23,700 nucleotides of DNA. Source: a virus. The stretch lies in the UHGV virus genome UHGV-0302543; one strand, given 5' to 3'. The first letter of the stretch is position 1. Each line of letters starts with the position of its first letter. Below, piece by piece: positions 1-20,077 of the stretch. The notes beneath the pieces were generated by a model. The model saw only the letters and a program-made list of their open reading frames with translations. It had not been told where the DNA came from and made no database searches. The position numbers and the translations under genes were made by a program.

Positions 1-136
1 TGGACAGCAACTCCGGCACCGTTTCCACATCCGCACCACCGGTGAGTCCCGTGCCGGTGACCGTGGCTGTCTGGTTGATGCCCGCCTGTGGTGTGATAAA
101 GGACAGGCGGGTTCCGGTCGGGGTATTTCCGGCGCG
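1..136 (-). CDS. baseplate J-like protein (Mu gp47-like), internal portion continuing beyond the window start
   Basis: Minus-strand frame reads RAGNTPTGTRLSFITPQAGINQTATVTGTGLTGGADVETVPELL, resembling the IPAGT region that follows the RKPA motif in baseplate J proteins; partial at window edge. Confidence 0.35.
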
Positions 137-142
137 CCCCGC

Positions 143-430
143 ACTTTCCCACTGGCGCAACTGATCACACAGACACAACAGGATATCAGCCAGCGCCTGC
201 CCGGTTCGCAGCCGGGCGTGAATGAAACCACCCTGAATGCCATTGCGTATGCACAGGCGGGGCTGTCAGCACAGGAGCATGAACATCTGGCCTGGATCTC
301 CCGGCAGATAATTCCGACAGAAGCTGATGAAGCCGAACTCCTGAAACACTGCGCATTCTGGGGTGTCATCCGTAAACCGGCTTCCCGCGCTGACGGACCG
401 GTACAACTGATGCTGACCACGGATGCAGGG
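143..430 (+). pseudogene. baseplate J-like (gp47-like) N-terminal region lying on the plus strand, opposite to all flanking tail genes; no canonical start
   Basis: Plus frame (track ORF 218..460 and upstream in-frame codons) reads TFPLAQLITQ...LPG...LNAIAYAQAGLSAQ...EADEAELLKHCAFWGVIRKPASRADGPVQLMLTTDAG, matching the baseplate J N-terminal signature; upstream in-frame codons contain no ATG/GTG/TTG. Confidence 0.45.
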
Positions 431-789
431 ATGCGATCATGCCCCACACGCATGGCATGACATACCACGGATGTGGCAGCACCGCTTTTATGCAGCCACG
501 CCAGCGCTTCATCAGCATAGGCCTGTGCACGGCTGACCACGGAGGACAGCGTCTTTTCACGGCTTAACAGCCAGAGACGGGAGCCAACGGGGCGCTCCCG
601 GAAACTGTCTCCCCACCATCCCCGCCTGTCACGAGTGCCGTCAGGGATTTCATCAGAATCCAGCGCCCGCCTGTCCGTAAACAGCGAAATCAGAACGGCC
701 GTCAGCAGACTGTCATCCGTCAGCAGGTCGGCACCGTTCAGTTGCAGCGAGCCGCACCCCTGATCCCATACAATTGCAATATCAGCCAT
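431..789 (-). CDS. Mu gp46-like baseplate protein; 3' end unresolved (no in-frame stop before the window start)
   Basis: ATG at 787-789 overlaps the gp45 stop (ATGGCTGA); translation MADIAIVWDQGCGSLQLNGADLLTDDSLLTAVLISLFTDRRALDSDEIPDGTRDRRGWWGDSF... is protein-like for about 120 codons, then degenerates into Cys/Arg-rich antisense-like sequence. Confidence 0.6.
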
Positions 790-1396
790 TCTCCGGTGCT
801 CCTGTCTTACTGCCTTTGCCGTTATCCTGATGCACATGACCGGAATACCGTATCCCTGCAATAACGGCATCCGACATTGTGAACAGTCCCTGAGATTTCC
901 CCGTACCATCAAGCGCGAAATTCCCCTTAACATGCAGGTTTTTATCCACCGTCACATTGCCCGTAAAGGTGGCTTCCGGCGTATCCACCCGCATCCCCTC
1001 GTCGGCGTAAATCTCCAGCATTTTGCATGTCACAATAATGCGACCATCCTTTGTTAACCGTATCCGGTGCCCCTCATGGTGATACACCCCCGTATCTCCG
1101 GCTTTGAGTCCGGTCGGACGGCTGCGCCGGTCTTCCACCACAAGCACCACAGTCTGATCCCGCTGTCCGCCCAGACAGGCAAAAAAGGTTTCTGCACCCG
1201 GCAGGGGAACGCTGATCTGCCCGTACTGCTGGGGGCGCTCCACATCATCAAAGGTTTCGCCGTCCATGCCGGTGAGCTGCACATTCTGCATTTTCAGTTC
1301 GTCATGTGTGCCGGTCAGAACGCCCCGGCCAAACAGCAGGCGAATACCGCGCGTTACCGGGGCAATCAGGCGGCTGAACACTTCATCATTCATCAA
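782..1396 (-). CDS. baseplate spike/assembly protein V (Mu gp45-like, gpV family)
   Basis: 204 aa; position between gp44 and gp46 homologs; gpV-like composition. Confidence 0.75.
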   Translation of the reverse strand: MMNDEVFSRLIAPVTRGIRLLFGRGVLTGTHDELKMQNVQLTGMDGETFDDVERPQQYGQISVPLPGAETFFACLGGQRDQTVVLVVEDRRSRPTGLKAGDTGVYHHEGHRIRLTKDGRIIVTCKMLEIYADEGMRVDTPEATFTGNVTVDKNLHVKGNFALDGTGKSQGLFTMSDAVIAGIRYSGHVHQDNGKGSKTGAPENG

Positions 1397-2510
1397 AGCT
1401 GATCCCCTGTTTTTTCATCTGCTGGCGAATAAAGGCATCAACATCGTCACCGGAACCACCCCGGCCCTTACTGTCCGGCTCTGCCGGAACGATAAAGCCG
1501 TCACGCGGTGCCAGTACCAGCCGGGTGACTTCCCCGTTCTGTTCATCCAGTAAAAACTCCACCTGACAGACCAGCAGTTCAGTCTGTTCTATACCGAAAC
1601 GCTGGGCCGAAACACCGGTCAGCAGATTGACATCCCATAACCGGCCATCATCCCGGAACCAGCCACGCACGGTGGCAGAAAACCGTTCTGAACGGGCAAT
1701 CGCACGGCGCATTTCACGCAGGGCACGCTGCCGTGCACCGGTGGTGTCTGTCTGTTGATCGGCGAGGATGATTTTCGGCCGGTAGCGGCCGATCTGCTCA
1801 TCACTGATGACGCCCACAGGTGCTGCCAGCCGGGCGGCGGACTCGCTGTCTCCCCGTTTGCCACCACCGCGCCCGTGTCCCCGGACACGGTATTCACTGT
1901 ATCGTCCTCGCCAGTCCGTGTTGTAATCGGCATCAAGCAGGTTATCTCCCAGCACCAGTCTGTCCGTCTGCTGGCTTCCTGCCTGGGTGAACACCAGATC
2001 GCCGTCAGCATTACTGGTCACCAGCACCCCGCGATGCCGGGCAGAACGGGTCAGCGCATCCGCCACGGTTTCTGAGTTTTCCAGCGTAAAAGAGCTGAAA
2101 GGGCGTGCAGCCGTGTCGTCGTTAACCTGCCAGCGCACAGCTATCCCGAAGGGCGCACATAAATCTGCGGCAATCTGTGCCAGCGTCCGGTTGCGCCACT
2201 GACTGCCGGGGTGGATGGCGGCACAGTCCACCAGATCGCCGGTTTTATCCCGGCCGCTGATGCTGATCTGATGACGGGTTGCACTGATCCGCTGACTGAC
2301 CTGATCCAGCCAGCCACTGATGACCGTCTGCCCGTTAATTCTGAGCGTCAGGGACTGACCGGTCCGCATGGCTGAGGGGATGCGCTCACCGGGCAGCATC
2401 AGCCCCAGTTCAAACGACCCGGCCAGATGCTCCAGCGAGCGACGGACGCTGACCGTCAGCCAGCCGGAAAAAATACTGCCACCGATATACAGTTCAATCC
2501 TGCTGCTCAC
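1386..2510 (-). CDS. baseplate hub protein (Mu gp44-like, P2 gpD-like)
   Basis: 374 aa, immediately downstream of the gp43 homolog; size and position match Mu gp44. Confidence 0.65.
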   Translation of the reverse strand: MSSRIELYIGGSIFSGWLTVSVRRSLEHLAGSFELGLMLPGERIPSAMRTGQSLTLRINGQTVISGWLDQVSQRISATRHQISISGRDKTGDLVDCAAIHPGSQWRNRTLAQIAADLCAPFGIAVRWQVNDDTAARPFSSFTLENSETVADALTRSARHRGVLVTSNADGDLVFTQAGSQQTDRLVLGDNLLDADYNTDWRGRYSEYRVRGHGRGGGKRGDSESAARLAAPVGVISDEQIGRYRPKIILADQQTDTTGARQRALREMRRAIARSERFSATVRGWFRDDGRLWDVNLLTGVSAQRFGIEQTELLVCQVEFLLDEQNGEVTRLVLAPRDGFIVPAEPDSKGRGGSGDDVDAFIRQQMKKQGISFDE

Positions 2511-3852
2511 TGATCACCTCCACGCTGCGGCCACCCGGAACAAAAACCGGATCGGGGATGTTGTTTCTGCGGACAAAATACTGCCAGCGGCGGCTGTTGC
2601 CGGTGGCACGGTACAGCGTGACCAGTGCCGGTTCGGTGGTTCGCACCATGACCTGAAAAGCACCGGGAAGATGAACACTCCGCGTGGTTAAATCTTCTGT
2701 CAGTGCAAGCCCTGCATCACGTAATGCAAGGGCGGTGCCGGTATGGCCCTGTGCGGACAGATCCAGTACCTGTTGTTCCATGGCATCACTCAAATCCCGG
2801 TTGATACGCTGCACATCGGCAGAACTTTCCAGCCAGGCCAGTCCACCCGCACGGTCAGTATCCTGAACGTGCGTTGTATTCTGCCGGATGACCTGATCCA
2901 GCAGTTTCCCGACCGTCTGCGCCTGCGACACCAGGGTTGCACTCTGCATGACGCTCCGCAGCAGACGGATATTTTTCTGTGCCGCAGGCGTCAGACCAAT
3001 CAGGCGCTGCGGATCATCCTGTTCGCTGAGGGTGTAACGCAGGGAAGAAAGTGTGCGGTACAGCTGCGGCATTGCCTGCTCTGTCATGCTGTCACGGTTT
3101 GTGGTCAGGCTGCCGGACGGCCTTCCTGTCTTCCCGGTCAGTGACAGGGAAGGATTGCCGGGCAGTCCGGTCAGCACAGCAAATATTCCGGCCAGAGATT
3201 CAGCCATGCGACGGGGCGCATTAATCAGGGCGGCGGCATTGCCTTTCAGGGCGGTAAAACTGGCCGTAAAGGCACTGACATCCTGCACAATCCCCATCCC
3301 TGAAACGGCATTCTCCAGCGCATCAATCTTATCGCTGATGGTGTCGGTCATGGCCTGTACATCATGCAGACCGTCTGAAATCACCGTCCAGCCGTCTGAA
3401 AGCGTGTTAAACAGCTGATTCATTGCTGAACCGCTTTTCTGCTCCAGCGCAGCTGCCGTATCTTCTGCCACCGAAGGGGCGGTATCGTCAATGGCGGGGA
3501 TCACGTTGATCGTGAACTCAACCGTTCCCTGCTCGCTGGCGTTATAACGGCTTTCAAAGCTGTTTATCAGCACGTTTAACGTGCCGTAATCCGGGTGCAT
3601 CAGTTCACCGGCACCGGGTGCACGCAGCGCATCACGCAGGCGGCTTCGCTGTGTCTGAAGATCGTCTCCGGTCACCAGAACCGTGAATGTGAACTCCGGG
3701 AGTTTTGGCCCCAGATCATCCGCACCGCCGCTTTCACGCAGTGGGTATTCACGGCGCACAATGTTACGTCCGCCCCGTTCCCGCTGCTCCTGATAAACCA
3801 GGAACGGTACGCCACGAAAGGAGCCACGCCCCGGCGTGTCAGTAGAGGCCAT
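2494..3852 (-). CDS. DNA circularization protein (Mu gp43 / P-like)
   Basis: 452 aa directly downstream of the tape measure gene; size, position and composition consistent with Mu gpP family. Confidence 0.65.
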   Translation of the reverse strand: MASTDTPGRGSFRGVPFLVYQEQRERGGRNIVRREYPLRESGGADDLGPKLPEFTFTVLVTGDDLQTQRSRLRDALRAPGAGELMHPDYGTLNVLINSFESRYNASEQGTVEFTINVIPAIDDTAPSVAEDTAAALEQKSGSAMNQLFNTLSDGWTVISDGLHDVQAMTDTISDKIDALENAVSGMGIVQDVSAFTASFTALKGNAAALINAPRRMAESLAGIFAVLTGLPGNPSLSLTGKTGRPSGSLTTNRDSMTEQAMPQLYRTLSSLRYTLSEQDDPQRLIGLTPAAQKNIRLLRSVMQSATLVSQAQTVGKLLDQVIRQNTTHVQDTDRAGGLAWLESSADVQRINRDLSDAMEQQVLDLSAQGHTGTALALRDAGLALTEDLTTRSVHLPGAFQVMVRTTEPALVTLYRATGNSRRWQYFVRRNNIPDPVFVPGGRSVEVISEQQD

Positions 3853-4642
3853 AGTTCCCTCCGTTCCAGACGTTCACATCCAGGCCATGCTGTGCGGTAT
3901 CATCCACATCAATACTGCGCGCCCGCCAGCCTTCAGGGGCCACAAGCTCTACCCGTGCGGCGGTTTTCGCGGTGGCCTGTCCGCCGTTTTCGTCACTGCT
4001 GCCACGCAGTTTCTGCCAGGCCTGCGTCAGCCAGCCCCCCAGATAATCACCGAGATAGCTGCCCACTGTGGAACCAATGGCAACCCCGACCGGACCGGCA
4101 GCCGCCCCCAGCGCGCCACCGGCGATACTTCCGGCAAGGGAACCCACGGCACCGGCTTTATCGGCTGCACTGGCGCTACTGTCCAGCAGTACAGGAGCCG
4201 CCATGGCACCGGCCCACAGGGCACCCCCACCCAGCCGACCGGCACCACGGAACAGCCCGGCAAAACGCCCCAGCCCCATGCGGTTTCCGGCCGCCGTTAC
4301 CAGACCACCGGCACGGCTCATCATACGACCGAAGAAGCCCTGTTTACCGGCGCTCTCCGCCAGCTGCTCACCGGCGGTCACGACGGTCGTGACACCCCGC
4401 CCGCGTCCGGGGCCGCGTTTTTTACGGCCGCGCACGGTTTTGCCGTCACCGCTGACCACCACATCCCCGCCGCCTGAGGCCAGGCCACCCGCAGGCCAGT
4501 TGGTGACCAGCACGGGCTGAACGGCAGCAGGATTTACCCCGGTAAGGAAATTCAGGAAGCGGCCAGCGCGTCCGGGCTGCGTTCCCGGCACAGTGGTCTG
4601 CGGTTTGCGGAAGGGCGACGTCAGCACGGAGGTCATCGCCAC
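3839..4642 (-). CDS. tail tape measure protein, C-terminal part (Gly-rich), separated from the N-terminal part by an inverted segment
   Basis: 267 aa; GTG start lies inside the left inverted-repeat copy; Gly/Ala-rich segment typical of tape measure C-termini. Confidence 0.7.
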   Translation of the reverse strand: MAMTSVLTSPFRKPQTTVPGTQPGRAGRFLNFLTGVNPAAVQPVLVTNWPAGGLASGGGDVVVSGDGKTVRGRKKRGPGRGRGVTTVVTAGEQLAESAGKQGFFGRMMSRAGGLVTAAGNRMGLGRFAGLFRGAGRLGGGALWAGAMAAPVLLDSSASAADKAGAVGSLAGSIAGGALGAAAGPVGVAIGSTVGSYLGDYLGGWLTQAWQKLRGSSDENGGQATAKTAARVELVAPEGWRARSIDVDDTAQHGLDVNVWNGGNYGLY

Positions 4643-4671
4643 AGTCTGAAAAAGAGCCTGAAAGGCTTCCT
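4625..4671. repeat. left repeat block in tape measure gene: 16-bp unit cacggaggtcatcgcc followed by 31-bp unit acagtctgaaaaagagcctgaaaggcttcct
   Basis: Exact reverse complements of both units occur at 4990..5036. Confidence 0.85.
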
Positions 4672-4989
4672 GGATTATGCTGATGCGGCACAGAAAAGCG
4701 GCTTACAGGATAAGCTGGCCACACAGACGGCCTCGGCCCTGAATCAGGGATTCGAGTATGCCAGAGACGCTGCAACCGGCTTTTACCGTGCCATTCAGAA
4801 AGTCAGGGAAACGCTTCAGGCACTGCGCGACGCCGGTTATGGCGATGCACTGGATCGTATTGGTCAGGGGGCGCAGACCGCCGCAAAATACCTGATGTAT
4901 ATGTATCTCGCCTCCCGCGCGCTGAAGGTGCTCAGGTTTGCGGGGGCGGGAGCATTACGTCTCGGCGCAACCCCCTTACGCTATAGTAT
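4672..4989 (+). other. inverted internal segment of the tape measure gene (coding sense on plus strand)
   Basis: Plus frame reads DYADAAQKSGLQDKLATQTASALNQGFEYARDAATGFYRAIQKVRETLQALRDAGYGDALDRIGQGAQTAAKYLMYMYLASRALKVLRFAGAGALRLGATPLRYS, helical and tape-measure-like, in frame with both flanking minus-strand parts once reverse-complemented. Confidence 0.75.
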
Positions 4990-5943
4990 GGCGATGACCT
5001 CCGTGAGGAAGCCTTTCAGGCTCTTTTTCAGACTGTCAAACGGTCCCTTTGCCATCACTTCACGGGCAAACTGATCCCAGACGTCGCCCATCATGGACGT
5101 CATTCCCGTCCAGGAATTCATGGCGTTTTTCTGGGCACCTTTTGCCTGTTCGGCCATCACCTGAAATAACAGGCGAATGCTGTCCGGCCCCAGTTTTCCT
5201 TTTTCGCCTTTCTCACGGATGAGCTTCTGGTTTACGCCCAGCTTATCGGCCAGTAACTGGTAAACGTTAATCCCGTATCCGGTCAGAATATTGGCGTCCG
5301 CTGCCTGGATACTCTGGCGGGCAAACATCTGTTTGAGTTGCAGGGACGCACCCTGTGCATCTGACAGTGACCAGCCGTGATAGCCGCCCTGATCCTGAAG
5401 CATGGTAATAAAGCGACGGGCTTCCCTGTCACTCATGCCAAACCCGCGACTGGAGGCGTATTCCTGCATAACCCCCGCCAGCCCCCAGGTGGTGTCTTTG
5501 GCGTTCTGTACTGCCCAGGCTTTCACTGCTTCCGTTTTTGCCTTATCGCCATGATTAATGGCGTTGAGACGCAGAATATAGTTCTCCATCTCTGCGGCCG
5601 GGCGGATAAAGGCTTTATTAAAACCGTAGACCGCAGCCCCTCCCGCCAGCATCCCGTAAAGGTTGCTTATCCGCCCGATGGTGCCGGTAATGCTGCCCTG
5701 CAGGCGGTCAAAATCTGACGTTACCGTGCGGATGCTGCCACGAACACCGGCAAGCGTTCGCTGCATACGGGAGCCGACAAGTTCTGTTTCCTGACCGGCC
5801 CGGCGGGCTGCATTTCCAAGACCACCCAGGCCTGTCCTGCCGGAACGGGAGAACGCCCCCAGCTCCTGTGACCACTGGCGGGATTTGGCGGAAATATTGC
5901 CGAGTAAATCGACAATCAGGGAGGCTTTCAGGTTTTTTGCCAT
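4981..5943 (-). CDS. tail tape measure protein, N-terminal part, truncated by TAG at 4981 just inside the inverted segment
   Basis: 320 aa, helical composition, immediately downstream of the chaperone gene. Confidence 0.7.
   Translation of the reverse strand: MAKNLKASLIVDLLGNISAKSRQWSQELGAFSRSGRTGLGGLGNAARRAGQETELVGSRMQRTLAGVRGSIRTVTSDFDRLQGSITGTIGRISNLYGMLAGGAAVYGFNKAFIRPAAEMENYILRLNAINHGDKAKTEAVKAWAVQNAKDTTWGLAGVMQEYASSRGFGMSDREARRFITMLQDQGGYHGWSLSDAQGASLQLKQMFARQSIQAADANILTGYGINVYQLLADKLGVNQKLIREKGEKGKLGPDSIRLLFQVMAEQAKGAQKNAMNSWTGMTSMMGDVWDQFAREVMAKGPFDSLKKSLKGFLTEVIAIL
4990..5036. repeat. right repeat block: ggcgatgacctccgtg followed by aggaagcctttcaggctctttttcagactgt
   Basis: Perfect reverse complements of the two left units, each inverted in place with order preserved. 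Confidence 0.85.
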
Positions 5944-6070
5944 GGGTTACTGCTTCGTTCTGAGAATTTTTTCGGTCTGTCGGCAGTGCCGGTAAAGCTG
6001 CGATAAGGGGAGGTTAAGCGCCCACTCCGGGCCGCTTTTTGTCACCATCCCCAGCACAATTGCGGCTTCT

Positions 6071-6547
6071 TCAATCTGATCCCGGCACTGCATCTGGTCG
6101 CCCCCGTTCAGCGACCAGCTTTCCTGCCATCGCGGAATCAAGCAGGCTTACCGCCGCCATCAGACGGGAGAGATCGCGCTCGCTGAGCTGTCCGATCTGA
6201 CGCGGAGATAATGGCCCCTCAATCTGGCCGACAGCGGCAATCTGACGGCGCAGCAGCGCAATGCCGCGCAGTGCCGGAGAGGCCACCAGAACCGGACCGT
6301 TTCGGGTTTCCATAAGACGCTCGGCCTCACTCTCCGCATCAATGCTGTCTTTCGCCGTCAGTTCGCGGAAGGTGACGCGGTATTCACGGGATTCACCGAA
6401 CGGCAGGCCGTCGAGCAGATCCACATAGCCGTTCACCAGCTGTTCAGCCAGCCCGGCGGTGCGGGGATCGCCGTCTTCAAGTGCATCCCGGATAGCCTCC
6501 ATCACGGCCTCGTCAGAAACCGCCGTTTTTTTCTTACGTGTGCTCAT
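6071..6547 (-). CDS. tail assembly chaperone (Mu gp41-like); overlapping ORF 5947..6141 may be a frameshift extension
   Basis: 158 aa between tube and tape measure genes; the overlapping ORF is in the +1 frame and ends 4 nt before the tape measure start; a G5 run (plus-strand C5 at about 6101-6105) lies in the overlap. Confidence 0.55.
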   Translation of the reverse strand: MSTRKKKTAVSDEAVMEAIRDALEDGDPRTAGLAEQLVNGYVDLLDGLPFGESREYRVTFRELTAKDSIDAESEAERLMETRNGPVLVASPALRGIALLRRQIAAVGQIEGPLSPRQIGQLSERDLSRLMAAVSLLDSAMAGKLVAERGRPDAVPGSD

Positions 6548-6561
6548 TACATTTTTCCTGA

Positions 6562-6927
6562 TTACTGGACACGGGTACTGGTGGCGCTGGCGAACTTCGC
6601 GGAGATATCACCGCCACCGTCAAGCGAGGCCGGTTCACTGCTCCAGGCCTTCGTCATCATGTGGACTTCACCGGTATCGGCCACAAACTCAATCGTGACC
6701 GCAGTCCAGGTGTTGATTTCATCGGCAGCCGGTGAACCTTCTCCGCCAGCCGGAAATTTACAGTCCAGCGTCGCCTCACGGGGTTTCTCGCGATAGCCAT
6801 AGACTTTCGCGCCTTTCACCACTTCACGCTCATAGCCGGACGGGGAGAACGTGGCCCCCTCAAGGGTGTCGTACTCCTGTCCGTTCACACGGATGGTGGC
6901 CGTGCCCTGATACTGTTTTCCGCTCAT
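6562..6927 (-). CDS. tail tube protein (Mu gp40 / M-like)
   Basis: 121 aa directly downstream of the sheath gene. Confidence 0.75.
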   Translation of the reverse strand: MSGKQYQGTATIRVNGQEYDTLEGATFSPSGYEREVVKGAKVYGYREKPREATLDCKFPAGGEGSPAADEINTWTAVTIEFVADTGEVHMMTKAWSSEPASLDGGGDISAKFASATSTRVQ

Positions 6928-6935
6928 GCCTTACC

Positions 6936-8438
6936 TCACAAAATGAAACGGATCTGTGCTGCCAGGAAGCGGAACTGGTTAACCAGATCCGGCGTGCATA
7001 ACACGTCAAGGCGGTTTCGATCTGACGTATTACGCTCCACAAGCAGATTCTTTTTAAACGTGTCCAGATTTTCGACCAGCCCGAGTTCCACCCACTCTTC
7101 ACCCAGCGAAATTAACTGAAGCTTCATGATCTCCGGCGTCACGATATTCTGACCGGCACGAACGGGCGTCCCGTCATCAGCCAGTTTATGGCGCGGAAAA
7201 CGTTGAGTGATGAAAGTGCGCAGGGAATAACGCAGATATGACAGGGTGTAGATGGTTTCCACATCCAGATAGCTGGGATCACTTTCGCCGTACACGTTCT
7301 GGCGATACATCGTCACCTGACGCTCAATCTGAACCATATCCCCGGCCGCCACACTGACCGTGGCAATCCCTCCCCACAGCAGACTGTTACGCTCTTCACG
7401 CGTCAGACGATCGGCCGGGGCCGGGGCCATGCGTGACGGAAGCGCCAGCGTCTGAAGCGGACGCGCAGGATCTGCTCCCAGAGAGGGTGCACAGGTGGCA
7501 CAGACCGCCGCTGCCCAGAGGTAATCCGGTTCAGGGGCTTTGGGAATGGATGTGCAGGTCGCCAGAAAATCATTGCGTTTTGCCCCGAATGCCTGCACCT
7601 CACCAAACGTGCCGGTATGTGCCAGCCACAGCACGCCGTCAGACATTTTGGCCGGTCCCCAGCGTTTCAGAAGTTCATCACTGATGATTTTCAGGTTTGC
7701 ATCGTCCTTGTAGGGCATGACAACATAGTTGTACTGGCGATCCCCCATTCCGGCCACACTTCGGGTGATATCGGGATTGCGGGCTCTTGAGGAGGGAAAG
7801 CCTGTCTGGGGCGTCAGCCCTGACGGCAGGGTTTCACCGTCGTGATAATTCAGGCGCAGATCGTGCACAGAGCATTCACCAATGAAGCGGGCGCTCACTC
7901 CCATACTTCCTTTCAGACCGCCTGCATTACTGCCATCAACAACCGCAGATACAGCTGTGAATGGCGCATCAGTATCCTTATTTATCAGGGCAACAAGCGC
8001 ATCAATGATAGCTTTTCCTTTTTGTCCGGCTTTTACGGGCAGCGCATAGCGTCGTCCACCAATATAGATGCAGAGCAAACCATCGGTCGCAGCCGTACCG
8101 GTAAGGTTAAAGGCGGCGGCATTTGCCCCGCCTGTTCCGGCCCCCTGCGCAATAGCATACAGTTCCGCATCAGGATTGATGGCAATAAATTCAGCCACCA
8201 TCAGAGCGATCATGGAGCCACGCCCCCAGAGCTCCACAGCCTGAGAGGCGCGAGTGATCCTGACCGGAACATCCAGCACACCGGTACCGTCCACAGCATT
8301 CTCTTTCATTCTCGCCTGACCAAACAGCAGCACACACTGACGCTGTGCCGGGGTGCCGGTGACCGCCATGGAGTTATTAAACTCAACCCCAATCAGCGGT
8401 ATACGGCGGTCATTACCGATCCCGTCAAAATTAATCAT
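6936..8438 (-). CDS. contractile tail sheath protein (Mu gp39 / L-like)
   Basis: 500 aa, sheath-like size and composition, upstream of the tube gene. Confidence 0.85.
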   Translation of the reverse strand: MINFDGIGNDRRIPLIGVEFNNSMAVTGTPAQRQCVLLFGQARMKENAVDGTGVLDVPVRITRASQAVELWGRGSMIALMVAEFIAINPDAELYAIAQGAGTGGANAAAFNLTGTAATDGLLCIYIGGRRYALPVKAGQKGKAIIDALVALINKDTDAPFTAVSAVVDGSNAGGLKGSMGVSARFIGECSVHDLRLNYHDGETLPSGLTPQTGFPSSRARNPDITRSVAGMGDRQYNYVVMPYKDDANLKIISDELLKRWGPAKMSDGVLWLAHTGTFGEVQAFGAKRNDFLATCTSIPKAPEPDYLWAAAVCATCAPSLGADPARPLQTLALPSRMAPAPADRLTREERNSLLWGGIATVSVAAGDMVQIERQVTMYRQNVYGESDPSYLDVETIYTLSYLRYSLRTFITQRFPRHKLADDGTPVRAGQNIVTPEIMKLQLISLGEEWVELGLVENLDTFKKNLLVERNTSDRNRLDVLCTPDLVNQFRFLAAQIRFIL

Positions 8439-8680
8439 TGCGGTTTCTCCTTATCGGATGCCGGTTGGGCGACCGGTTTTTCTGTCGCAGTCGTTGCATC
8501 CGCAGATACAGCCGGAGCCTCTTCAGCGGCTTTTTCAGCCTGAATGACATCGCCGTCATCAAGACGCCGACACCAGAACGGCGTGAAGGTTTTTTCCTCC
8601 CCCTCCTGTGCCAGCGGGCGCATTGTGTCGGGATCACGAATCAGGCGTCCCGGCGCGGGTTTGATAAAGATGGTTTTCAT
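8435..8680 (-). CDS. Mu gp38-like small protein (DUF2635-like)
   Basis: 81 aa starting MKTIFIKPAPGRLIRDPDT; GGAGGA RBS upstream; start overlaps the sheath start region. Confidence 0.55.
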   Translation of the reverse strand: MKTIFIKPAPGRLIRDPDTMRPLAQEGEEKTFTPFWCRRLDDGDVIQAEKAAEEAPAVSADATTATEKPVAQPASDKEKPQ

Positions 8681-8701
8681 TTACAGTTCCTCCGGCGGTT
8701 C

Positions 8702-8726
8702 GACCGCCGTTGTCGTGTTCCCCGGC
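8702..8726. repeat. left copy of a perfect 25-bp inverted repeat (gaccgccgttgtcgtgttccccggc)
   Basis: Exact reverse complement at about 9058..9082; coordinates +/-1. Confidence 0.85.
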
Positions 8727-9088
8727 TGGTCAGTCACTGGGTGTTCTACGTCATCGGCGACATGCTCAACGGGCGTGAGGCCAGCCGTCCCGGACTGTAT
8801 CAGATTGTGGCCCGGCTGATTGCCGTGCTTAACGGCTTCAGAACAGAAAAAACCTCACCGCTTTACTTTGAAAAGGCGGTCAACGGTTACACCGAAACCC
8901 AGGCGAACAGTGGGGCCGTGATGTATGCGCTTTATTTCTCCTGCGAGGAAATGATCGCGCCACTGACGGATATCAGCTCGCTGGACGACTTCCTGCGTCA
9001 TTACGAAACCTTTGTGGAGCCGCCCGGTACGCCGCCGTTTGAGGCACATATTGATTTGCCGGGGAACACGACAACGGCGGTCCGTTAA
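8727..9088 (+). pseudogene. body of the gp37-like head gene in inverted orientation (sense on plus strand)
   Basis: Plus frame reads VSHWVFYVIGDMLNGREASRPGLYQIVARLIAVLNGFRTEKTSPLYFEKAVNGYTETQANSGAVMYALYFSCEEMIAPLTDISSLDDFLRHYETFVEPPGTPPFEAHIDLPGNTTTAVR*; every flanking gene is minus-strand. Confidence 0.75.
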
Positions 9089-9209
9089 TCAGCATGGTGC
9101 GCAGTACGCTGTCGCTCCAGTCGCCGGGATGCGTGTCAACAGACACAAGTTCATTCCCGAAATACTCACGGATACGGGCGATGTATGCCTGTTCGGTTTC
9201 CGTAATCAT
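8973..9209 (-). pseudogene. gp37-like N-terminal fragment (first 42 codons plausible, then reads into the repeat and antisense of the inverted body)
   Basis: ATG overlaps the gp36 stop (ATATGA); MITETEQAYIARIREYFGNELVSVDTHPGDWSDSVLRTMLIN followed by low-complexity sequence and stop. Confidence 0.65.
9058..9082. repeat. right copy of the 25-bp inverted repeat (gccggggaacacgacaacggcggtc)
   Basis: Perfect reverse complement of 8702..8726. Confidence 0.85.
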
Positions 9210-9625
9210 ATGAAGCCCTTCTGGTTGCGCCCGAATACCGCCGCATCAGACTGAACCTGTGGTAAATCCCCGGATTCAGGGGCCGCACCGTTCGTATCCA
9301 CACCTACCGGCACATTGCCGTTCATGACATCTTTCAGCCAGGCCAGCGCTTCACGGTAACGGTCACGCGCCTGATCGGAGGCTCGCTGATCGCACAGGTA
9401 ATAAAAGGCAATCGCGCAACAGTGCTGAACAAGAACAGCCGGGATAACCTCCAGCGGCAGCGTGTAACGGGCGGACAGATAGCTGTCGATAAGGGCTGAC
9501 GCATCTGTCAGCGCCCGGTTCAGCTTGCGCGTGTCCAGCTCATCCGAACGGGGCACTGCCAGTAACGGCCTGAGCAAATCCTCGCGGTAACGCGCCCGCA
9601 TATCGCTTTCAGTGGCGTAATTCAT
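9206..9625 (-). CDS. Mu gp36-like protein (DUF1320-like)
   Basis: 139 aa starting MNYATESDMRARYREDLLRPLL; position between gp35-like and gp37-like genes. Confidence 0.6.
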   Translation of the reverse strand: MNYATESDMRARYREDLLRPLLAVPRSDELDTRKLNRALTDASALIDSYLSARYTLPLEVIPAVLVQHCCAIAFYYLCDQRASDQARDRYREALAWLKDVMNGNVPVGVDTNGAAPESGDLPQVQSDAAVFGRNQKGFI

Positions 9626-9993
9626 GCGCGGGCCTTTTTCGCCTGTTTCGCTTTGTTACCGGTCTTTTTCCGGGGAGCATCCTGTCCGGCTTCGGCTTCG
9701 GCTTCGGCTTCGGCTAAATCTGTACCGGCCACTGCATGAACCACACCCGCCACGCTCCCCGCATCATCAGCAGGCGTCTGTAGTATTCGCACAGTGAGGC
9801 ATGGCTCCGCCTCCAGTCGGGCAAGCTGCTCCGGGGTGACCTCAACCTGCTGACGTCCACGCGTGAACAGGAACCCCGCACGACGAAACGCCGAACGACT
9901 GCAACGCACTTCTGCCAGCACCGTGACAGAATTGTCACCACTGACCTGAAGACCTGAATCATCTGTTGCTGCCACAGTGTGATGTTCATTCAT
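9622..9993 (-). CDS. hypothetical head-region protein (Mu gp35 position) with AEAEAEAE repeat and Lys/Arg-rich C-terminal tail
   Basis: 123 aa; GGAGGG RBS upstream of the ATG; contains the hexanucleotide tandem repeat. Confidence 0.45.
   Translation of the reverse strand: MNEHHTVAATDDSGLQVSGDNSVTVLAEVRCSRSAFRRAGFLFTRGRQQVEVTPEQLARLEAEPCLTVRILQTPADDAGSVAGVVHAVAGTDLAEAEAEAEAGQDAPRKKTGNKAKQAKKARA
9688..9715. repeat. tandem hexanucleotide repeat (ggcttc), about 4.5 copies, inside the gp35-like CDS
   Basis: Read directly: ggcttcggcttcggcttcggcttcggct; encodes (AE)n on the minus strand. Confidence 0.85.
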
Positions 9994-10036
9994 ATTTGCC
10001 CTCCGCAGGGGCCGGGCCGTAAACCCGGCTCACCGT

Positions 10037-10984
10037 TTACAGATAATCCGCGACAACCAGCTCCAGCTTGCCCTTCATCTCGTTAGAGACGGTTGCGTTT
10101 CCGTCTGCGAACAGTTCACGCTCCAGCAGCTGCACCGCCTGTTTTTCCAGCGAGGTGGGGACAACAATATGGGTGGGTTTGATGCCGAGCTTGCGGCCAC
10201 CGTCAGCGGTAAATTCGCGCATGGCTGACCAGCCGTGCCACAGTGCATCCAGCGTCAGCGGTGACTGCATCATGTAGGCCATCTGCCAGAAGCCGTAGCC
10301 CACATTGCGACGGGCGGAAGCACCGAACACAAATTCGTTATCGGTGAATGCGCGACCTTCATCGACTTTGGTCTGGGCAACCAGTTCAGCCTTACGGCGA
10401 TCCTGATAAATCAGCGGTTTGATTGCGCGTGAACAGTCGAGCAGATACCAGGCAGGACCGCTGTAATCCGCCTGTGCACCGACAGAGCCGGTTTTTGCCA
10501 CAAACATATTGCTGACCATCTGCGCATCCCCGGAGCCATCCACTTTGGGGTAAACAGGATGTTCGGTATCAAAGAAGTTCTGGCCGTCATAGCAGGCCGC
10601 ATTAATCCCGTCACGAAGAGCAGCAAAGACCAGTTCATCCGGTTGTGCCGCAGCAGCGCGCCCCATCTCCTGGAACAACGGGGAATAAATACCGAGGTTA
10701 TCGTCTTCGAAGTCATCGCGGTTAATGGCGACGGTGCCTTCAAAGGTTTTGTTCACGATGGCATAGCCATAGGCCTTCATCTTCTCGATGACGCGGGAGC
10801 CGATCCACTCACGGAACTGCGGGAACTGCCCCAGCCAGCCGTAGGTGTTGGATTTCGAGGTGGAGGGCACGGTCATCGCAATTTTTTTGTACTGCGACGG
10901 GGCCATGGACACCCCGGCCTGAAAATCAGAACGGTAGCCCGTCATCAGGGCGGTGATCATCGCCGGTGTAATCGGGGTAGGCAT
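10037..10984 (-). CDS. major head (capsid) protein (Mu gp34 / T-like)
   Basis: 315 aa immediately downstream of the protease/scaffold gene. Confidence 0.8.
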   Translation of the reverse strand: MPTPITPAMITALMTGYRSDFQAGVSMAPSQYKKIAMTVPSTSKSNTYGWLGQFPQFREWIGSRVIEKMKAYGYAIVNKTFEGTVAINRDDFEDDNLGIYSPLFQEMGRAAAAQPDELVFAALRDGINAACYDGQNFFDTEHPVYPKVDGSGDAQMVSNMFVAKTGSVGAQADYSGPAWYLLDCSRAIKPLIYQDRRKAELVAQTKVDEGRAFTDNEFVFGASARRNVGYGFWQMAYMMQSPLTLDALWHGWSAMREFTADGGRKLGIKPTHIVVPTSLEKQAVQLLERELFADGNATVSNEMKGKLELVVADYL

Positions 10985-12108
10985 TATTGCATTTCCTCTT
11001 TCATTTTCAGGAATTCGGCTTCGGTTTTACCCAGAAGATGGGCGGCGGCGATATCTTCAGCCGACAGCGAGGCGGTGGCGGTCTTTTTATCCGGCACGGT
11101 CACGGTGTCGGTCTGAAGGCCGGTCAGGGCTGCAACCGGCTGTCGGGCGTCAAGCTGTGCAGAAAGTGCAGTAACACCAATCTGCCCACCCAGCTGTTCC
11201 AGATAGCCGCGTTCGCTTTTGAAGATGCGCCCTTCGGACTCGGCCTTGTCCAGCACCTGCTCCAGCGTGGTGCTGCCGTGCTGTGCTGACAGCGCAACGT
11301 ATTCGGTACGCAGGGCGTTATACGTTTCAATGGGCACATATTTCGTCAGATCAATACTGCCGCCAGCCGGTGTACCTTTTGCGGTTTCCAGCTCTGCCGA
11401 CAGACTGGCGACCTGTGTTTTCAGGTTGTCGTGTGCATCCGCACGGGTTTTGATCCCGGTGAGGGCAGACAGCGCCGCCGTGCCCAGCTCCGGCGTAAAT
11501 TCGTCACCGTCAGCCACGGTCAGACCGAGCGCCGTCAGCAACTGGCGTAATTGCTCATTCATGGAGGTATCCTTTAAAGGAGGGTTTAAGGCGTTATAAA
11601 GGTCATCCGCCGACAGCGCGGCGACAGGATTCATGCCGGTCAGACCGGGGTCACCGGTAATAGCCAGCATCCGAAGTTCGACAGGTTCGCCGGTGTTCTC
11701 GTCATAGCCAATCACCGGTGAAAACCAGGGGAATTCGTTATTACGCAGATGTTCAAGGGCCGGAGGGTTCCACTTCGGGCGCACCTCGAAGCCACGCTCT
11801 TCACTGAAGCGGAAGTTTTCCGGTGAAGCCGTCACAAAACCGGCAGCCGGTGCCTGATGCCCCTTAATCAGGGTCTGGTGGTTGTAGTCAATTTTTACCG
11901 GCTGATTGAGCGCCACAACCCGGGATACCATGCGCTCAACGGTCGCACGGTTAATCAGCCAGCCTTCAGCCGGTTTTTCCGGGCGACCGTCACGGGCCTT
12001 TACCCGACCGGCTGGCATGATCTGACACCAGTCACCGTCCCCGTCTGCGGACAGGCTGATGGCATTCAGAATGGCATAAGCAAGTTTGGGCGTGTTTTTC
12101 GTCTTCAT
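10984..12108 (-). CDS. head protease/scaffold protein (Mu gp32 / I-like)
   Basis: 374 aa; N-terminal protease-like region and C-terminal helical scaffold-like region. Confidence 0.75.
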   Translation of the reverse strand: MKTKNTPKLAYAILNAISLSADGDGDWCQIMPAGRVKARDGRPEKPAEGWLINRATVERMVSRVVALNQPVKIDYNHQTLIKGHQAPAAGFVTASPENFRFSEERGFEVRPKWNPPALEHLRNNEFPWFSPVIGYDENTGEPVELRMLAITGDPGLTGMNPVAALSADDLYNALNPPLKDTSMNEQLRQLLTALGLTVADGDEFTPELGTAALSALTGIKTRADAHDNLKTQVASLSAELETAKGTPAGGSIDLTKYVPIETYNALRTEYVALSAQHGSTTLEQVLDKAESEGRIFKSERGYLEQLGGQIGVTALSAQLDARQPVAALTGLQTDTVTVPDKKTATASLSAEDIAAAHLLGKTEAEFLKMKEEMQ

Positions 12109-12255
12109 TCCGGCAGCATAAGCCGGGAATTTTCAGGGCGGGTTTTGCGGGATTTCAGGAAGTGCTTTCAGGGGAAAAATACAAAGGCGCTTCACGCAGA
12201 TTTTAAAGCCCGTTAAATACAGGTTAGAAAATCACGACACGCGCCTGAAGGGGGT

Positions 12256-12278
12256 AAGGTAATGCATTTGCATACCTT
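12256..12278. promoter_or_regulatory. dyad-symmetric element aaggta-atgcatttgca-tacctt in the G-I intergenic region; candidate operator or late-promoter activator site
   Basis: 6-bp inverted arms around a palindromic core, in the 176-nt intergenic region upstream of gene I where a C/Mor-dependent late promoter is expected. Confidence 0.3.
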
Positions 12279-12284
12279 AAACAA

Positions 12285-12758
12285 TTAAGGCGTTTCTGTG
12301 GCCTTTTTAAAGCGTTTTCTGATTTCGTCCATGATCTCCTGTTCAGCCACCTCATCAAAGCCCATATACGGACGTGCGCCAATGGCTGCCAGTCCCGGTG
12401 GCATACCAGGCAGGCCACCCCACTGATGAATGGCTGCATAAGGTTCATTTGATCCAATCAGCGCCCAGGTATCGCCATAATCCGTGGTCAGGCGGCGGGC
12501 CAGATCGCCGTTCAGCGTCAGGATTTTGCCGGGCGTGTATCCCTTACGGGTACGCCACTTGCGGTAAGGATCTGACCAGTCATGCCAGCGTTCGCCGTCC
12601 GGCTCTTTTTCCTGTTCAAACGCCATTTCTGAGGATGACAGAAGGCTGGACGCCACACTGCGGGCCAGGTCTTTTCCGCCCCCCACAAACTGAAGCCGGG
12701 CAAACACCCGCTGGAGACGCGTAACGTCAACAACGACAGCGGCATCAATGGATGACAT
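12285..12758 (-). CDS. virion morphogenesis protein (Mu gp31 / G-like)
   Basis: 157 aa; GGAGG RBS; position between F and I homologs. Confidence 0.75.
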   Translation of the reverse strand: MSSIDAAVVVDVTRLQRVFARLQFVGGGKDLARSVASSLLSSSEMAFEQEKEPDGERWHDWSDPYRKWRTRKGYTPGKILTLNGDLARRLTTDYGDTWALIGSNEPYAAIHQWGGLPGMPPGLAAIGARPYMGFDEVAEQEIMDEIRKRFKKATETP

Positions 12759-12880
12759 ATTGCCTCCGTGAAACTACCTGGTTAAAATAAAAGCAGGTCG
12801 GTGTACTCTTAACTGGTAAAGCGGCGCCTGATGGTTTTTTCCTGAGGGATGTTTATGCGGGTTCGACCCCCGCCACCGAC
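12759..12880 (-). other. structured intergenic region between F and G (nested stem-loops followed by a T-run on the minus strand)
   Basis: 9-bp long-range complement aggtcggtg / caccgacct encloses the hairpin gcggg-ttcgacc-cccgc; minus strand continues CTGCTTTTATTTT. Confidence 0.3.
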
Positions 12881-14206
12881 CTACAATTCACCCTCCAGTA
12901 ATTCCAGCTTTCCACCGCGCAGATCATCAAGTAATGCCTCCTTTTTGACTCTGTAGGCATTAATCACCACATCCAGCTTATCCGGCTGACGTTTCACACT
13001 ATAAGGCGCATTGACGGCAATCTTTGCCGTTCCGTCACGGGTTTCAGTGATGTAAAGCAGATTCTGATGGACATGATCCCACAGCACGGCATCAGGCGCG
13101 GCCAGCATTGCCGGTAATCGCCCGAAATCCTCCGGCGTCAGGGCAATGCCGTCATTCTGATGTTTCACGCTGTCCGCATGGAGCACATTTTTACCGCTCA
13201 TCGCCAGCAGGCGGGCCGGTGGCGTTCCCGTCCGGCTTTCCACCGCCTGCGCAATACTTTCGGTCATAAAGCCCAGCGTGCGGATATCGTGACCACCTCG
13301 CCGGGTCTTCATGATGTTTTTTGCCCAGATGCGGAACGCCAGCTGCCGCTCCGGGCTGTTGTTCATCTCCTGAACCACCATTTCCCGTAACGCCGGGCTT
13401 TTCACCTCGATCAGTTTACGGATCAGCGCCTGGTCTGTGCCGAACGCCGCCGAACCGGGGTTATATGACCAGCCCACATCCGGTGTCATGGTTCTGGTGC
13501 CATCTGAATATGTGGTCACCGGCATTTCTCTGACTTCTCCGGTCTGCTTATCCACGCCAGCCTCAACATTGCGGGTGGAGAGATGATCCTGACCGGATGA
13601 AACGGATAACCCCATTGCATCCAGACGGGCCTGAGATAATGGCCGGACACGGCAGCGGCAGTTCCAGCCATTGGGCGGGTAGTGTGTATTCCAGAACGGA
13701 TCGTCATAGCGGAATACCAGCCCGTTAAAGGCGGAATGTGCCGGGCGGGTGCGGCTGTCCATCACCGCCACATACTGCCAGAACGGATGCGTGTCCGTGT
13801 TGTTCATCATCTGCGTGTAACGCCCGGCATTGTAAGCCACACGGGTGTTCACGTTGTAAATCAGCGCCAGACGGCGGGGACTGCCCAGCTGCACTTCTTC
13901 CGCGTTACCGGCACTGTCCACCACAATCTGTTTTCCCCACCATCCCAGCTTTTGCAGGCGGGGTGTCAGCGTGCGAATAAATGCTTTCTGTGAAATCCCC
14001 TCATCAACAGCACGCTGCACTTCCGCCTGTAGTGTGGTCAGTACGTCCAGGCGTGCCACTTTTGCCGCCGTGAATGAACGGGCATGAACATCCGCGTCTG
14101 TTTCGAACCAGTTCCAGCTGATATGCGCCCCTTTGGCGCGGAAGTATGCCACCGCCTCTTTTGAGGGAAGCGTGGCGGCATAACCCAGATCAATCCCCTG
14201 TGCCAT
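12881..14206 (-). CDS. head morphogenesis protein (Mu gp30 / F-like)
   Basis: 441 aa containing the F-family GWNCRCRV motif; directly downstream of the portal gene. Confidence 0.8.
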   Translation of the reverse strand: MAQGIDLGYAATLPSKEAVAYFRAKGAHISWNWFETDADVHARSFTAAKVARLDVLTTLQAEVQRAVDEGISQKAFIRTLTPRLQKLGWWGKQIVVDSAGNAEEVQLGSPRRLALIYNVNTRVAYNAGRYTQMMNNTDTHPFWQYVAVMDSRTRPAHSAFNGLVFRYDDPFWNTHYPPNGWNCRCRVRPLSQARLDAMGLSVSSGQDHLSTRNVEAGVDKQTGEVREMPVTTYSDGTRTMTPDVGWSYNPGSAAFGTDQALIRKLIEVKSPALREMVVQEMNNSPERQLAFRIWAKNIMKTRRGGHDIRTLGFMTESIAQAVESRTGTPPARLLAMSGKNVLHADSVKHQNDGIALTPEDFGRLPAMLAAPDAVLWDHVHQNLLYITETRDGTAKIAVNAPYSVKRQPDKLDVVINAYRVKKEALLDDLRGGKLELLEGEL

Positions 14207-17443: not shown

Positions 17444-18024
17444 CAGACTTTACCCAACAGAATCCCCTTAATACGGGACTCAAGCTGTTCACTCATCCCG
17501 TCCACGCCGCGCAGCTCGTCGGTGACCGCGTTTGCCATCTCTTCAGCAAATGCGGCCCGGATTTCTTTTTCACGCTTAATGCTGCGCTCGGCGGCACTTT
17601 CCGCACGCTGTGCTGACAGGAGGATGTCTTTGATGAGGCGCATATCCACGTCGCTGTCGCTGTTCAGAGATTCGGTCGCGGCACGCAGGCGGCGGTACAT
17701 CAGGGCGCGGGACATTTCCAGAATCAGTGCAGTGGTTTCACCGGTTGGCTTGTCCCCCAGTTCGGCCATCATGGCTTTTGTCTGCTCGCGTAAATCACGC
17801 AGGTTACGGGCAATCAGCTCATTACGGGAGGCTTCCCGGCTGATGGCCGCCGGTGAAAGCTGCTGCTCTTCCGGCAGGCCCACCTCACGGATCAGACGGT
17901 TGATTTCCTCGCGGATCTGGACCTGCGTCAGACGTTTTTCACGCAGCATTTCCAGCAGCGGCTTACGGATGCTGTCGGGGAGCAAATCCACCTTGCGTAC
18001 ACGACCACGCGTCGGCTTGTCCAT
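17443..18024 (-). CDS. Mu gp27-like protein (DUF3486-like; putative terminase small subunit)
   Basis: 193 aa starting MDKPTRGRVRKVDLLPDSIRKPLLEML; AAGGGGG RBS; immediately upstream of the large terminase. Confidence 0.6.
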   Translation of the reverse strand: MDKPTRGRVRKVDLLPDSIRKPLLEMLREKRLTQVQIREEINRLIREVGLPEEQQLSPAAISREASRNELIARNLRDLREQTKAMMAELGDKPTGETTALILEMSRALMYRRLRAATESLNSDSDVDMRLIKDILLSAQRAESAAERSIKREKEIRAAFAEEMANAVTDELRGVDGMSEQLESRIKGILLGKV

Positions 18025-18026
18025 CG

Positions 18027-18317
18027 TTACCCCCTTGCGCGTGGTTTCTTCACACCCGGAACGCAGGCCCGGCCTTCCGCCACATCCTGCCCACGACCGG
18101 TCAGTTCCGCGATGAAATAACCGTTAATCAGAACGCGTTTGCGCACCAGTCCCTGCTCGGCAAGCCAGGCAATGTGGGTGTGAACGGTGTCGCGGGACAC
18201 GCGGTGGCCGTAATCATCCAGACAGTCCTGGAGCACGGATTCACCCAGTTCACCGTTGTAATCTGCCAGCGACCGCAGAATGACCAGACGCTGATCTTCA
18301 GTAATGAAATCACTCAT
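18027..18317 (-). CDS. hypothetical small protein, winged-helix-like (Mu gp26 position)
   Basis: 96 aa, ATG start, position only. Confidence 0.4.
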   Translation of the reverse strand: MSDFITEDQRLVILRSLADYNGELGESVLQDCLDDYGHRVSRDTVHTHIAWLAEQGLVRKRVLINGYFIAELTGRGQDVAEGRACVPGVKKPRARG

Positions 18318-18622
18318 TGCGTTTTTTTCCTTACAGCCTGCTCCAGCAGCAGTTCGTTCTGATAGGAGACAGAGCGGAGCGTGGCGTTCGTGGTTTTCAG
18401 TTCACCCCGCAGGGTCACGATTTCCACATTCAGACGGTTGACCTCGGCTTCTGTCGGCAGTGACGACAGGCGGGTTTCCACCTTCTCAACGCGGTCGGAG
18501 AGTTTTTCAAAGGCCTCGCGGGGGACAAACGTTTTGCGCATCAGCGCCATGAATATCCCGCCAGCGGTTGCCGTCGCCGAAAGGATCGGCACAACATAAT
18601 CTTTAACGATGCTGACCCACAT
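18314..18622 (-). CDS. Mu gp25-like membrane protein (DUF2730-like); candidate releasin for the SAR endolysin
   Basis: 102 aa; N-terminal hydrophobic helix VVPILSATATAGGIFMALM followed by a coiled-coil-like region; position in the lysis cassette. Confidence 0.5.
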   Translation of the reverse strand: MWVSIVKDYVVPILSATATAGGIFMALMRKTFVPREAFEKLSDRVEKVETRLSSLPTEAEVNRLNVEIVTLRGELKTTNATLRSVSYQNELLLEQAVRKKTQ

Positions 18623-18827: not shown

Positions 18828-18840
18828 CATACCTTTTTCC

Positions 18841-20006: not shown

Positions 20007-20007
20007 T

Positions 20008-20045: not shown

Positions 20046-20077
20046 GGTGAAGGAAAGGCGGCAGGCTTTGCGGAATA

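Follow-up and report, generated by a model that had tools for sequence, protein, structure and literature searches.

Three inverted blocks in a Mu-like prophage sequence of Escherichia coli are probably errors of the sequence record

The window, the whole stretch of 23,700 nt analysed here, is an ordinary Mu-like prophage of E. coli. Compared with near-identical relatives, it contains three reverse-complemented blocks, located at positions 149-432 (284 nt, site 1), 4641-5005 (365 nt, site 2), and 8726-9082 (357 nt, site 3), and their reversal holds relative to every relative compared. These three apparent inversions are probably errors made in building the sequence record and not events in the phage, and we infer a computational or manual cause.

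The exact limits of the blocks were set by base-by-base extension against the reverse complement of the relative L010. The features of the three sites are as follows (window positions).

1-149, minus strand: collinear block F0, with aa 135-183 of baseplate J (Mu gp47-like), cut off by the left window edge; 100% identical to L003-L013, and assigned by protein mapping
149-432, plus strand: inverted block I1 (284 nt), carrying aa 7-100 of baseplate J on the wrong strand; extension against relatives
433-789, minus strand: truncated GP46 gene, aa 1-119 of 145; protein mapping
3839-4641, minus strand: C-terminal part of the tape measure protein, aa 420-685, collinear; ORF list, mapping, and annotation of relatives
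4625-4641, partner 4989-5005, no strand: 17-nt repeat arm a, which in the ancestor ends the left collinear block, copied inside I2; arm single-copy in relatives
4641-5005, plus strand: inverted block I2 (365 nt), carrying aa 304-424 of the tape measure protein on the wrong strand; extension against relatives
5006-5036, partner 4641-4671, no strand: 31-nt repeat arm b, which in the ancestor begins the right collinear block, copied inside I2; repeat search
5006-5943, minus strand: N-terminal part of the tape measure protein, aa 1-313, collinear; mapping
8681-8726, minus strand: collinear end (last 46 nt) of the gene for Gp37 (DUF1834); extension and mapping
8702-8726, partner 9058-9082, no strand: 25-nt repeat arm c, inside the last 46 nt of the Gp37 gene; repeat search
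8726-9082, plus strand: inverted block I3 (357 nt), carrying aa 62-180 of Gp37 on the wrong strand; extension against relatives
9083-9209, minus strand: N-terminal part of Gp37, aa 1-42, collinear; extension and mapping

The genes around the inverted blocks all lie on the minus strand, and the blocks code on the plus strand at all three sites, in agreement with the original prediction that each is oriented against its gene. The long collinear blocks differ from the near-identical relatives at 0-5 positions per block, and the sequence content of all three inverted blocks is 100% identical to the ancestor. The other ORFs of the window are all intact, and a tRNA scan and an Rfam scan of the window were both empty.

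The anatomy is common to all three sites: an ancestral block of 284-365 nt, reverse-complemented and set in with blunt joints, whose ends do not match the gap that it fills. The results showed that the blocks overlap their neighbours by 17, 31, and 25 nt, which produces perfect inverted repeats, or leave 99, 98, and 56 nt of the gap uncovered, so that ancestral sequence is deleted. At site 1, ancestral sequence is missing at the left joint (99 nt) and at the right joint (98 nt), and the 3' end of GP46 and the start codon of baseplate J fall within the missing 98 nt; no inverted repeat flanks block I1 in the repeat search of the window or in the comparison with relatives. At site 2, the block overlaps both neighbours (17 and 31 nt in ancestral coordinates) and no ancestral sequence is lost; the tape measure ORF as found (4981-5943, 320 aa) terminates within I2. 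At site 3, a 25-nt overlap with the left neighbour is accompanied by the loss of 56 nt of the ancestor (Gp37 aa 43-61) at the right joint. The six joints share 1, 0, 1, 0, 1, and 0 nt, which is the chance level. This shared anatomy supports the earlier proposal that three events of the same size had one cause.

The net length relative to the ancestor is changed by -198 nt at site 1, +47 nt at site 2, and -32 nt at site 3, and therefore flipping the blocks back rebuilds none of the genes. It had been claimed that each gene is restored by flipping, which the sequence contradicts: flips simulated at each of the two repeat pairs of site 2 yielded at most fragments of 437 or 398 aa, compared to the 685-aa tape measure protein. 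The three blocks do lie in virion genes, as had been pointed out, but their confinement to such genes carries little weight because virion genes make up much of the window; by our own calculation, the probability that three randomly placed events would all be within the first 9.2 kb of the 23.7 kb is about 0.06.

For the perfect inverted repeats of 17, 25, and 31 nt, we estimate that such pairs are expected by chance about 6e-4, 9e-9, and 2e-12 times (10 kb, arms less than 1 kb apart). The arms are the duplicated ends of the blocks, each being single-copy in L001, L002, L010, and L021, and they are mutually unrelated, with a longest common word of 3-4 nt. Thus the earlier description of the repeats at the two well-defined sites as unrelated in sequence and as duplicates of local block termini was accurate (at most 4 nt shared), and so was the statement that the sites have no recombinase site in common. 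No gix-like site was found at the breakpoints, the best match in the window having 12 of 34 positions mismatched and lying at position 13366; Gin acting on pseudo-gix sites was rejected as a cause, since no breakpoint carries gix-like sequence. A quasi-palindrome or inverted repeat was not found in the ancestor at the block sites, and no restriction-site or transposase signature is evident in the junction sequences.

Among matching complete E. coli genomes, the inverted arrangement was found in 0 of 227 at site 1, 0 of 33 at site 2, and 0 of 229 at site 3, and none of 65 related loci has the inverted state at any of the three sites. Ten contigs that share with the window an identical DNA-circularisation protein match its flanks at 99.8-100% identity and are all collinear, with an intact 685-aa tape measure protein, 186-aa Gp37, 145-aa GP46, and 360-aa baseplate J. 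Essentially the same prophage is thus collinear in other assemblies, one part of the outcome that the original prediction had associated with misassembly. The 33-mer spanning a joint of site 2 had no match in GTDB representative genomes, IMG/VR, or JGI metagenomes, and exact look-up in a collection of 15 billion proteins returned neither the 320-aa truncated tape measure product nor the 78-aa Gp37 product. In the three nucleotide collections, the Gam gene, located just beyond the window, gave matches to other prophages only and to no identical or masked contig. A 267-aa ORF (3839-4642) did have a database match, which we discarded as a lead: it corresponds to two draft contigs with the ancestral sequence that end 3 nt from the breakpoint, and it arises through a junction-created GTG translated as Met. 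Given the many partial tape measure entries, a match of this kind by chance is plausible (about 0.2-0.3 by our own estimate).

Outside the blocks, the window is almost undiverged from its relatives. Compared with L021, it has 0 mismatches over positions 5841-8726, and over positions 9075-23700 it has 3 mismatches and one repeat-length indel, a 30-bp difference in the length of a microsatellite; no further inversions or scars of collinear joins were found in positions 9083-23700 in this comparison. Because of this near identity, three complex rearrangements would have had to occur in almost no evolutionary time. As a control, 65 related loci (633 kb aligned) were compared in the same way. Both states of the genuine G-segment inversion were recovered, and no further block lay on the opposite strand. 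If the pieces were assembly-graph nodes delimited by allele differences among co-resident Mu-like prophages, their breakpoints would be expected at boundaries of divergence. Among six alleles compared around the 12 ancestral breakpoints, such a boundary was found at the left side of site 2 alone, and the sequence at the other five breakpoints is conserved among these alleles. Two draft contigs, L013 and L014, stop 3 nt from that left breakpoint, where a divergent patch of the tape measure gene has its edge.

An error in building the record would account for these observations as follows. Three independent short pieces (284, 365, and 357 nt) of correct prophage sequence may have been put in the right position in the wrong orientation, their size fitting single reads, merged read pairs, tiny contigs, or gap-closing PCR reads. 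The pieces would have been butted onto the flanking contigs without alignment or trimming. Where a piece extended beyond the end of its neighbour, the untrimmed overlap would appear as a perfect inverted repeat (17, 31, and 25 nt), and where it was too short for the gap, ancestral bases would be missing (99, 98, and 56 nt). The arrangement is private to this record among the assemblies compared, the block lengths are narrowly distributed at the typical scale of reads or inserts (284-365 nt), and the blocks tile the ancestor as independent pieces would, overlapping or falling short with perfect content. Small contigs or gap-fill pieces placed in the wrong orientation have the same properties, namely private flips the size of reads or small contigs, blunt joints, overlaps or losses, and perfect content, and scaffolding is reported to yield small inversions where orientation information is weak (review PMC6550390). 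The blocks described here differ from them in that no Ns or gap markers stand at the joints. Several observations do not fit this reading easily. All the large blocks have one orientation and all three small ones are flipped, which has a probability of about 1/64 under random orientation; no correctly oriented join with an untrimmed overlap exists in the window; and the breakpoints mostly lie off the allele-divergence boundaries where a graph would fork, with the left side of site 2 as the exception. Since a De Bruijn assembler does not create new junction k-mers, such an error would have to lie in scaffolding, gap filling, or manual joining, and we know of no specific assembler or finishing step that yields exactly such blocks. 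Among the three candidate causes listed in the original prediction, an assembly or library artefact gives the best fit.

The other two candidates were a template-switch process and a programmed switch. Unprogrammed rearrangements that truly took place, very recently, in one prophage copy are unlikely. They could have arisen by a double switch of the FoSTeS/MMBIR type, in which the nascent strand jumps 332-384 nt ahead to the opposite template (384, 348, and 332 nt at the three sites), copies back 284-365 nt (284, 365, and 357 nt), and returns to the original strand, or by rejoining of a double-strand-break fragment in inverted orientation. The four-point geometry with two switches fits all three sites, duplications and deletions included, and to that extent the template-switch proposal holds. 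Template switching (quasi-palindrome, FoSTeS/MMBIR) and staggered breaks produce inversions with flanking inverted duplications or deletions, as in the L-a-b'-M'-a'-b-R structure of site 2, but they use microhomology or a fixed stagger, whereas the joints here share 0-1 nt and the overlaps and gaps range from -99 to +31 nt. Switching primed by annealing requires complementarity, and microhomology of 0-1 nt at six joints is at the chance level; to our knowledge, E. coli has no classical end-joining pathway. In favour of real events, the consensus is otherwise of high quality without indel noise, and the host can do without the virion genes of a prophage, so that damage to them would be tolerated. 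The ancestor, however, has no quasi-palindrome at the sites and its arms are single-copy, the three complex events would stand beside at most about 5 point differences from the relatives, and nothing comparable exists in 33-229 matching complete genomes or in 65 related loci. It is still harder to credit that homology-independent "inverted patch replacement", with patches of about 350 nt, occurred as a burst in a single Mu-like prophage, perhaps in connection with Mu-type replicative transposition or with uncoupled forks. Chimeras formed in vitro and captured by the assembler, either inverted chimeras of phi29 multiple displacement amplification (MDA) or fold-back and ligation chimeras of the library, are improbable. 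Of MDA chimeras, 85% are inverted, with nearby segments of one molecule favoured (PMC1855051), which resembles the junctions between nearby segments seen here, and the distances match the size of library fragments. MDA chimeras, however, are single junctions, whereas each site of the window has two matched junctions about 300-400 nt apart that return to register and would both have to win the consensus. At least 2 nt of complementarity is present at the junction in 93.5% of proximal inverted MDA chimeras (PMC1855051, Lasken and Stockwell 2007), compared to 0 of 6 joints here, and random ligation would link distant loci and not adjacent pieces in the correct order.

Programmed invertible elements, namely intragenic invertons or Gin-like or shufflon-like systems that toggle virion genes, are effectively excluded. 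Their appeal lies in the inverted repeats of 17-31 nt around about 330 nt, which resemble the calls of inverton finders (definition in bioRxiv 10.1101/2023.03.11.532203), and in the Gin-like invertase that the phage family encodes beside its G segment. Intragenic invertons likewise have a short inverted-repeat pair within coding sequence around a few hundred bases, but in them a recombinase does the flipping and the two repeats persist in either state (Chanin et al., bioRxiv 10.1101/2023.03.11.532203), whereas the repeats of the window occur only in the "flipped" record, being absent from every relative and from site 1 altogether, and flipping back regenerates no gene. The inversion of the Mu G segment by Gin, a serine invertase acting on gix sites, shares with the three blocks the phage family, DNA inversion in tail genes, and bracketing inverted repeats. 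In this family, the G segment is about 1.4 kb long, is bounded by 179-nt repeats with a gix-like core, is conserved in relatives, and is exchanged conservatively; the three blocks share neither this size nor the gix-bearing repeats, conservation, occurrence in both orientations, or conservative exchange. Their arms are related neither among themselves nor to the gix-like site of the family, the non-conservative exchange (-198, +47, and -32 nt) leaves the genes broken after a flip, and all other assemblies show one orientation, whereas the true G segment shows both. The programmed switch suggested in the original prediction is therefore rejected.

If the events were real, they would represent a clustered, homology-independent mutational signature not described for E. 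coli, and a burst in vivo would have knocked out the genes for the baseplate, tape measure, and Gp37 together. If, as we consider probable, they are artefacts of the record, perfect inverted repeats of 17-31 nt around about 330 nt inside genes are what finders of invertons and phase variation would flag. Three checks could separate such false calls from true switches: the presence of the repeats in relatives, the conservative nature of the exchange, and the occurrence of both orientations elsewhere. In that case, the tape measure, Gp37, GP46, and baseplate J "pseudogenes" of this record should not be counted as prophage decay.

The 23.7-kb window corresponds to the late region (virion and lysis genes) of a Mu-like prophage of E. 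coli; nearly all genes lie on the minus strand. Its gene order is collinear with that of annotated prophages of complete genomes, such as STEC2018-607 (L001), which runs through baseplate J/gp47, GP46, gp45, a baseplate protein, the DNA circularisation protein, tape measure, tail assembly, tube and sheath, and then DUF2635, Gp37/DUF1834, gp36, an HI1506-related gene, major head gpT, the protease and onward. Relatives much closer than L001 occur among contigs of draft and metagenome assemblies: in ten of these, the DNA-circularisation protein is identical, and identity to the collinear blocks of the window is 99.8-100%. The ENA scaffold L021 shows 0 mismatches over w5841-8726, and 3 mismatches plus one 30-bp indel over w9075-23700.

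BLAST searches against 24 relatives showed every time that three short blocks match the opposite strand and that the rest of the window is collinear. The block limits were set exactly by extending matches base by base along the reverse-complemented related locus L010; this bore out the three reverse-complemented segments of about 300-330 nt in the original prediction, and a repeat finder likewise recovered the perfect inverted repeats claimed at sites 2 and 3.

Blocks (extension against L010) and perfect inverted repeats (repeat finder) in the window
w1-149, collinear block F0
w149-432, plus strand, inverted block I1 (site 1), 284 nt, encodes baseplate J aa 7-100
w433-4641, collinear block F1
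w4641-5005, plus strand, inverted block I2 (site 2), 365 nt, encodes tape measure aa 304-424
w5006-8726, collinear block F2
w8726-9082, plus strand, inverted block I3 (site 3), 357 nt, encodes Gp37 aa 62-180
from w9083, collinear block F3
w4641-4671 and w5006-5036, 31-nt repeat, site 2
w4625-4641 and w4989-5005, 17-nt repeat, site 2
w8702-8726 and w9058-9082, 25-nt repeat, site 3

I1, I2 and I3 are each 100% identical to the ancestral sequence, that is, the collinear arrangement of relatives, and the remainder of the three proteins is encoded by the minus-strand flanks. At all three sites, the ends of the inverted block mismatch the ends of the gap that it fills. I2 overlaps its left flank by 17 nt and its right flank by 31 nt in ancestral positions, and because of this double overlap the repeats are not nested (a pairs with a', b' with b) in the structure L-a-b'-M'-a'-b-R; no ancestral sequence was lost there (net +47 nt). 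The 25-nt repeat at site 3 is the overlap between I3 and its left flank, and 56 nt of the ancestor are absent at the right joint (net -32 nt; 901 nt in the window versus 933 nt in comparisons with hundreds of complete genomes). I1 has no overlap with either flank; 99 and 98 nt of the ancestor are absent, including the GP46 3' end and the baseplate J start (net -198 nt; 720 nt versus 918 nt in the corresponding comparisons). The sequence common to both sides at the six joints is 1, 0, 1, 0, 1 and 0 nt, which is the chance level.

A programmed switch, one of the candidate causes originally suggested, is scarcely credible. The repeat arms are single-copy in relatives, and therefore the repeats are a product of the event and did not serve as its substrate. 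The arms have at most 4 nt in common with each other, in agreement with the earlier claim that sites 2 and 3 share no recombinase site, and they are unlike the crossover site of their own phage family, which we took from the G segment of L001, where the inverted repeats are 179 nt long (core AAACCTCGGTTTAC). The exchange was non-conservative at every site. Restoration of each gene by flipping did not hold up: simulated inversion at either site 2 repeat pair gave fragments of 437 or 398 aa compared to the 685-aa protein, and sequence was lost at sites 1 and 3, so no flip can restore them. The check proposed on other assemblies found the inverted state in 0 of the complete E. coli genomes matching sites 2, 3 and 1 (33, 229 and 227 genomes, respectively) and in none of 65 related loci (633 kb of aligned sequence); as a positive control, the 65-locus scan detected the real Gin-type G segment in both orientations and no other inversion. 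Intragenic invertons consist of an inverted-repeat pair and a recombinase (bioRxiv 10.1101/2023.03.11.532203); the three sites superficially resemble these and Mu G-segment inversion, but lack every defining feature testable here.

A real, recent, homology-independent rearrangement is unlikely. A two-step template switch reproduces the geometry (a jump of 332-384 nt ahead to the other strand, a copy-back of 284-365 nt and a return); however, template switches are primed by annealing, and none of the six joints shares at least 2 nt. Staggered-cut models cannot account for 17-, 31- and 25-nt overlaps combined with the loss of 56-99 nt, and the classical end-joining pathway is, to our knowledge, absent from E. 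coli. Given the near-identity to public relatives, three independent complex events would be needed in almost no time, and several megabases of related sequence of this prophage family contain no such event; a genuinely unusual mutational burst is quite improbable. The chance of in-vitro chimeras is slim: in phi29 MDA, the best-documented in-vitro case, 93.5% of proximal inverted chimeras have at least 2 nt of junction complementarity (PMC1855051), versus 0/6 joints here. In geometry, the three sites resemble the products of template switching and MDA, but their junction chemistry differs. Neither real mutation nor a polymerase artefact in vitro is as likely as the explanation that follows.

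With their perfect content and correct position, and with overlaps or shortfalls of arbitrary size at their neighbours, the blocks behave like independent sequence pieces. Such pieces may have been reads, merged read pairs, tiny contigs or gap-closing PCR reads, which would have been put in with the wrong orientation and then concatenated untrimmed. This is probably what happened, and among the causes originally suggested an assembly or library artefact fits best. The blunt joints and the size of 284-365 nt agree with independent pieces, and the sites match expectations for scaffolding or finishing orientation errors, small inversions being a recognised scaffolding error where orientation information is weak (PMC6550390). 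Such an origin also predicts that breakpoints fall at assembly-graph forks, which holds for the left breakpoint of site 2 alone; it lies at the border of a strongly divergent patch in the tape measure gene, and two unrelated draft contigs (L013/L014) end 3 nt away.

Further observations were made on this prophage and its relatives. The canonical Gin-type G segment lies just left of w1 (L001 12463-13897 and equivalents in L002-L012); it is about 1.4 kb long, carries tail-fibre and tail-fibre-assembly genes, adjoins a Resolvase/HTH_7 gene, and has 88%-complementary inverted repeats with the gix-like core; near-identical prophages carry it in one or the other orientation. The tape measure mosaic patch (w ~4630-4700 and ~4930-5005; aa ~400-420) has alleles ...LKVLRFAGAGALRLGATPLRYSMAMTSV... 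versus ...LKAVRAIGLGALRPGAALLGYGLSTAAV..., and several draft assemblies have contigs broken at its edges (partial proteins P0010-P0012). Within baseplate J, w1-149 is 87.8% identical to L001 and L002 and 100% to L003-L013, marking another recombination mosaic boundary; in the L001/L002 comparisons, the left joint of site 1 happens to fall at it. Around the N-terminal start of the phage protease gene and the adjacent spacer, w11564-11950 is a mosaic replacement that aligns to L002, L003 and L021 and not to L001 or L004. PGAP annotates a 'tRNA-OTHER' in complete-genome relatives (L001 28508-28595, w ~12760-12880) between virion-morphogenesis and head-morphogenesis genes; ARAGORN and Rfam at gathering thresholds gave no matches in the whole window. 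The HI1506-related/FluMu_N gene (9622-9993, minus strand) contains a perfect hexamer microsatellite, (CGGCTT)x4.8 at w9687-9715, read as (AAGCCG)n or Lys-Pro repeats. Its product ranges from 102 to 149 aa among otherwise near-identical prophages, and the 30-bp indel, the sole one in 14.6 kb compared with the closest relative, is placed here by gene lengths of 133 versus 123 aa, which suggests rapid evolution of the repeat length.

We classify the three inverted blocks as not a real biological feature. The genes of the window outside the three sites are all intact, with a handful of substitutions compared to the nearest public relatives.
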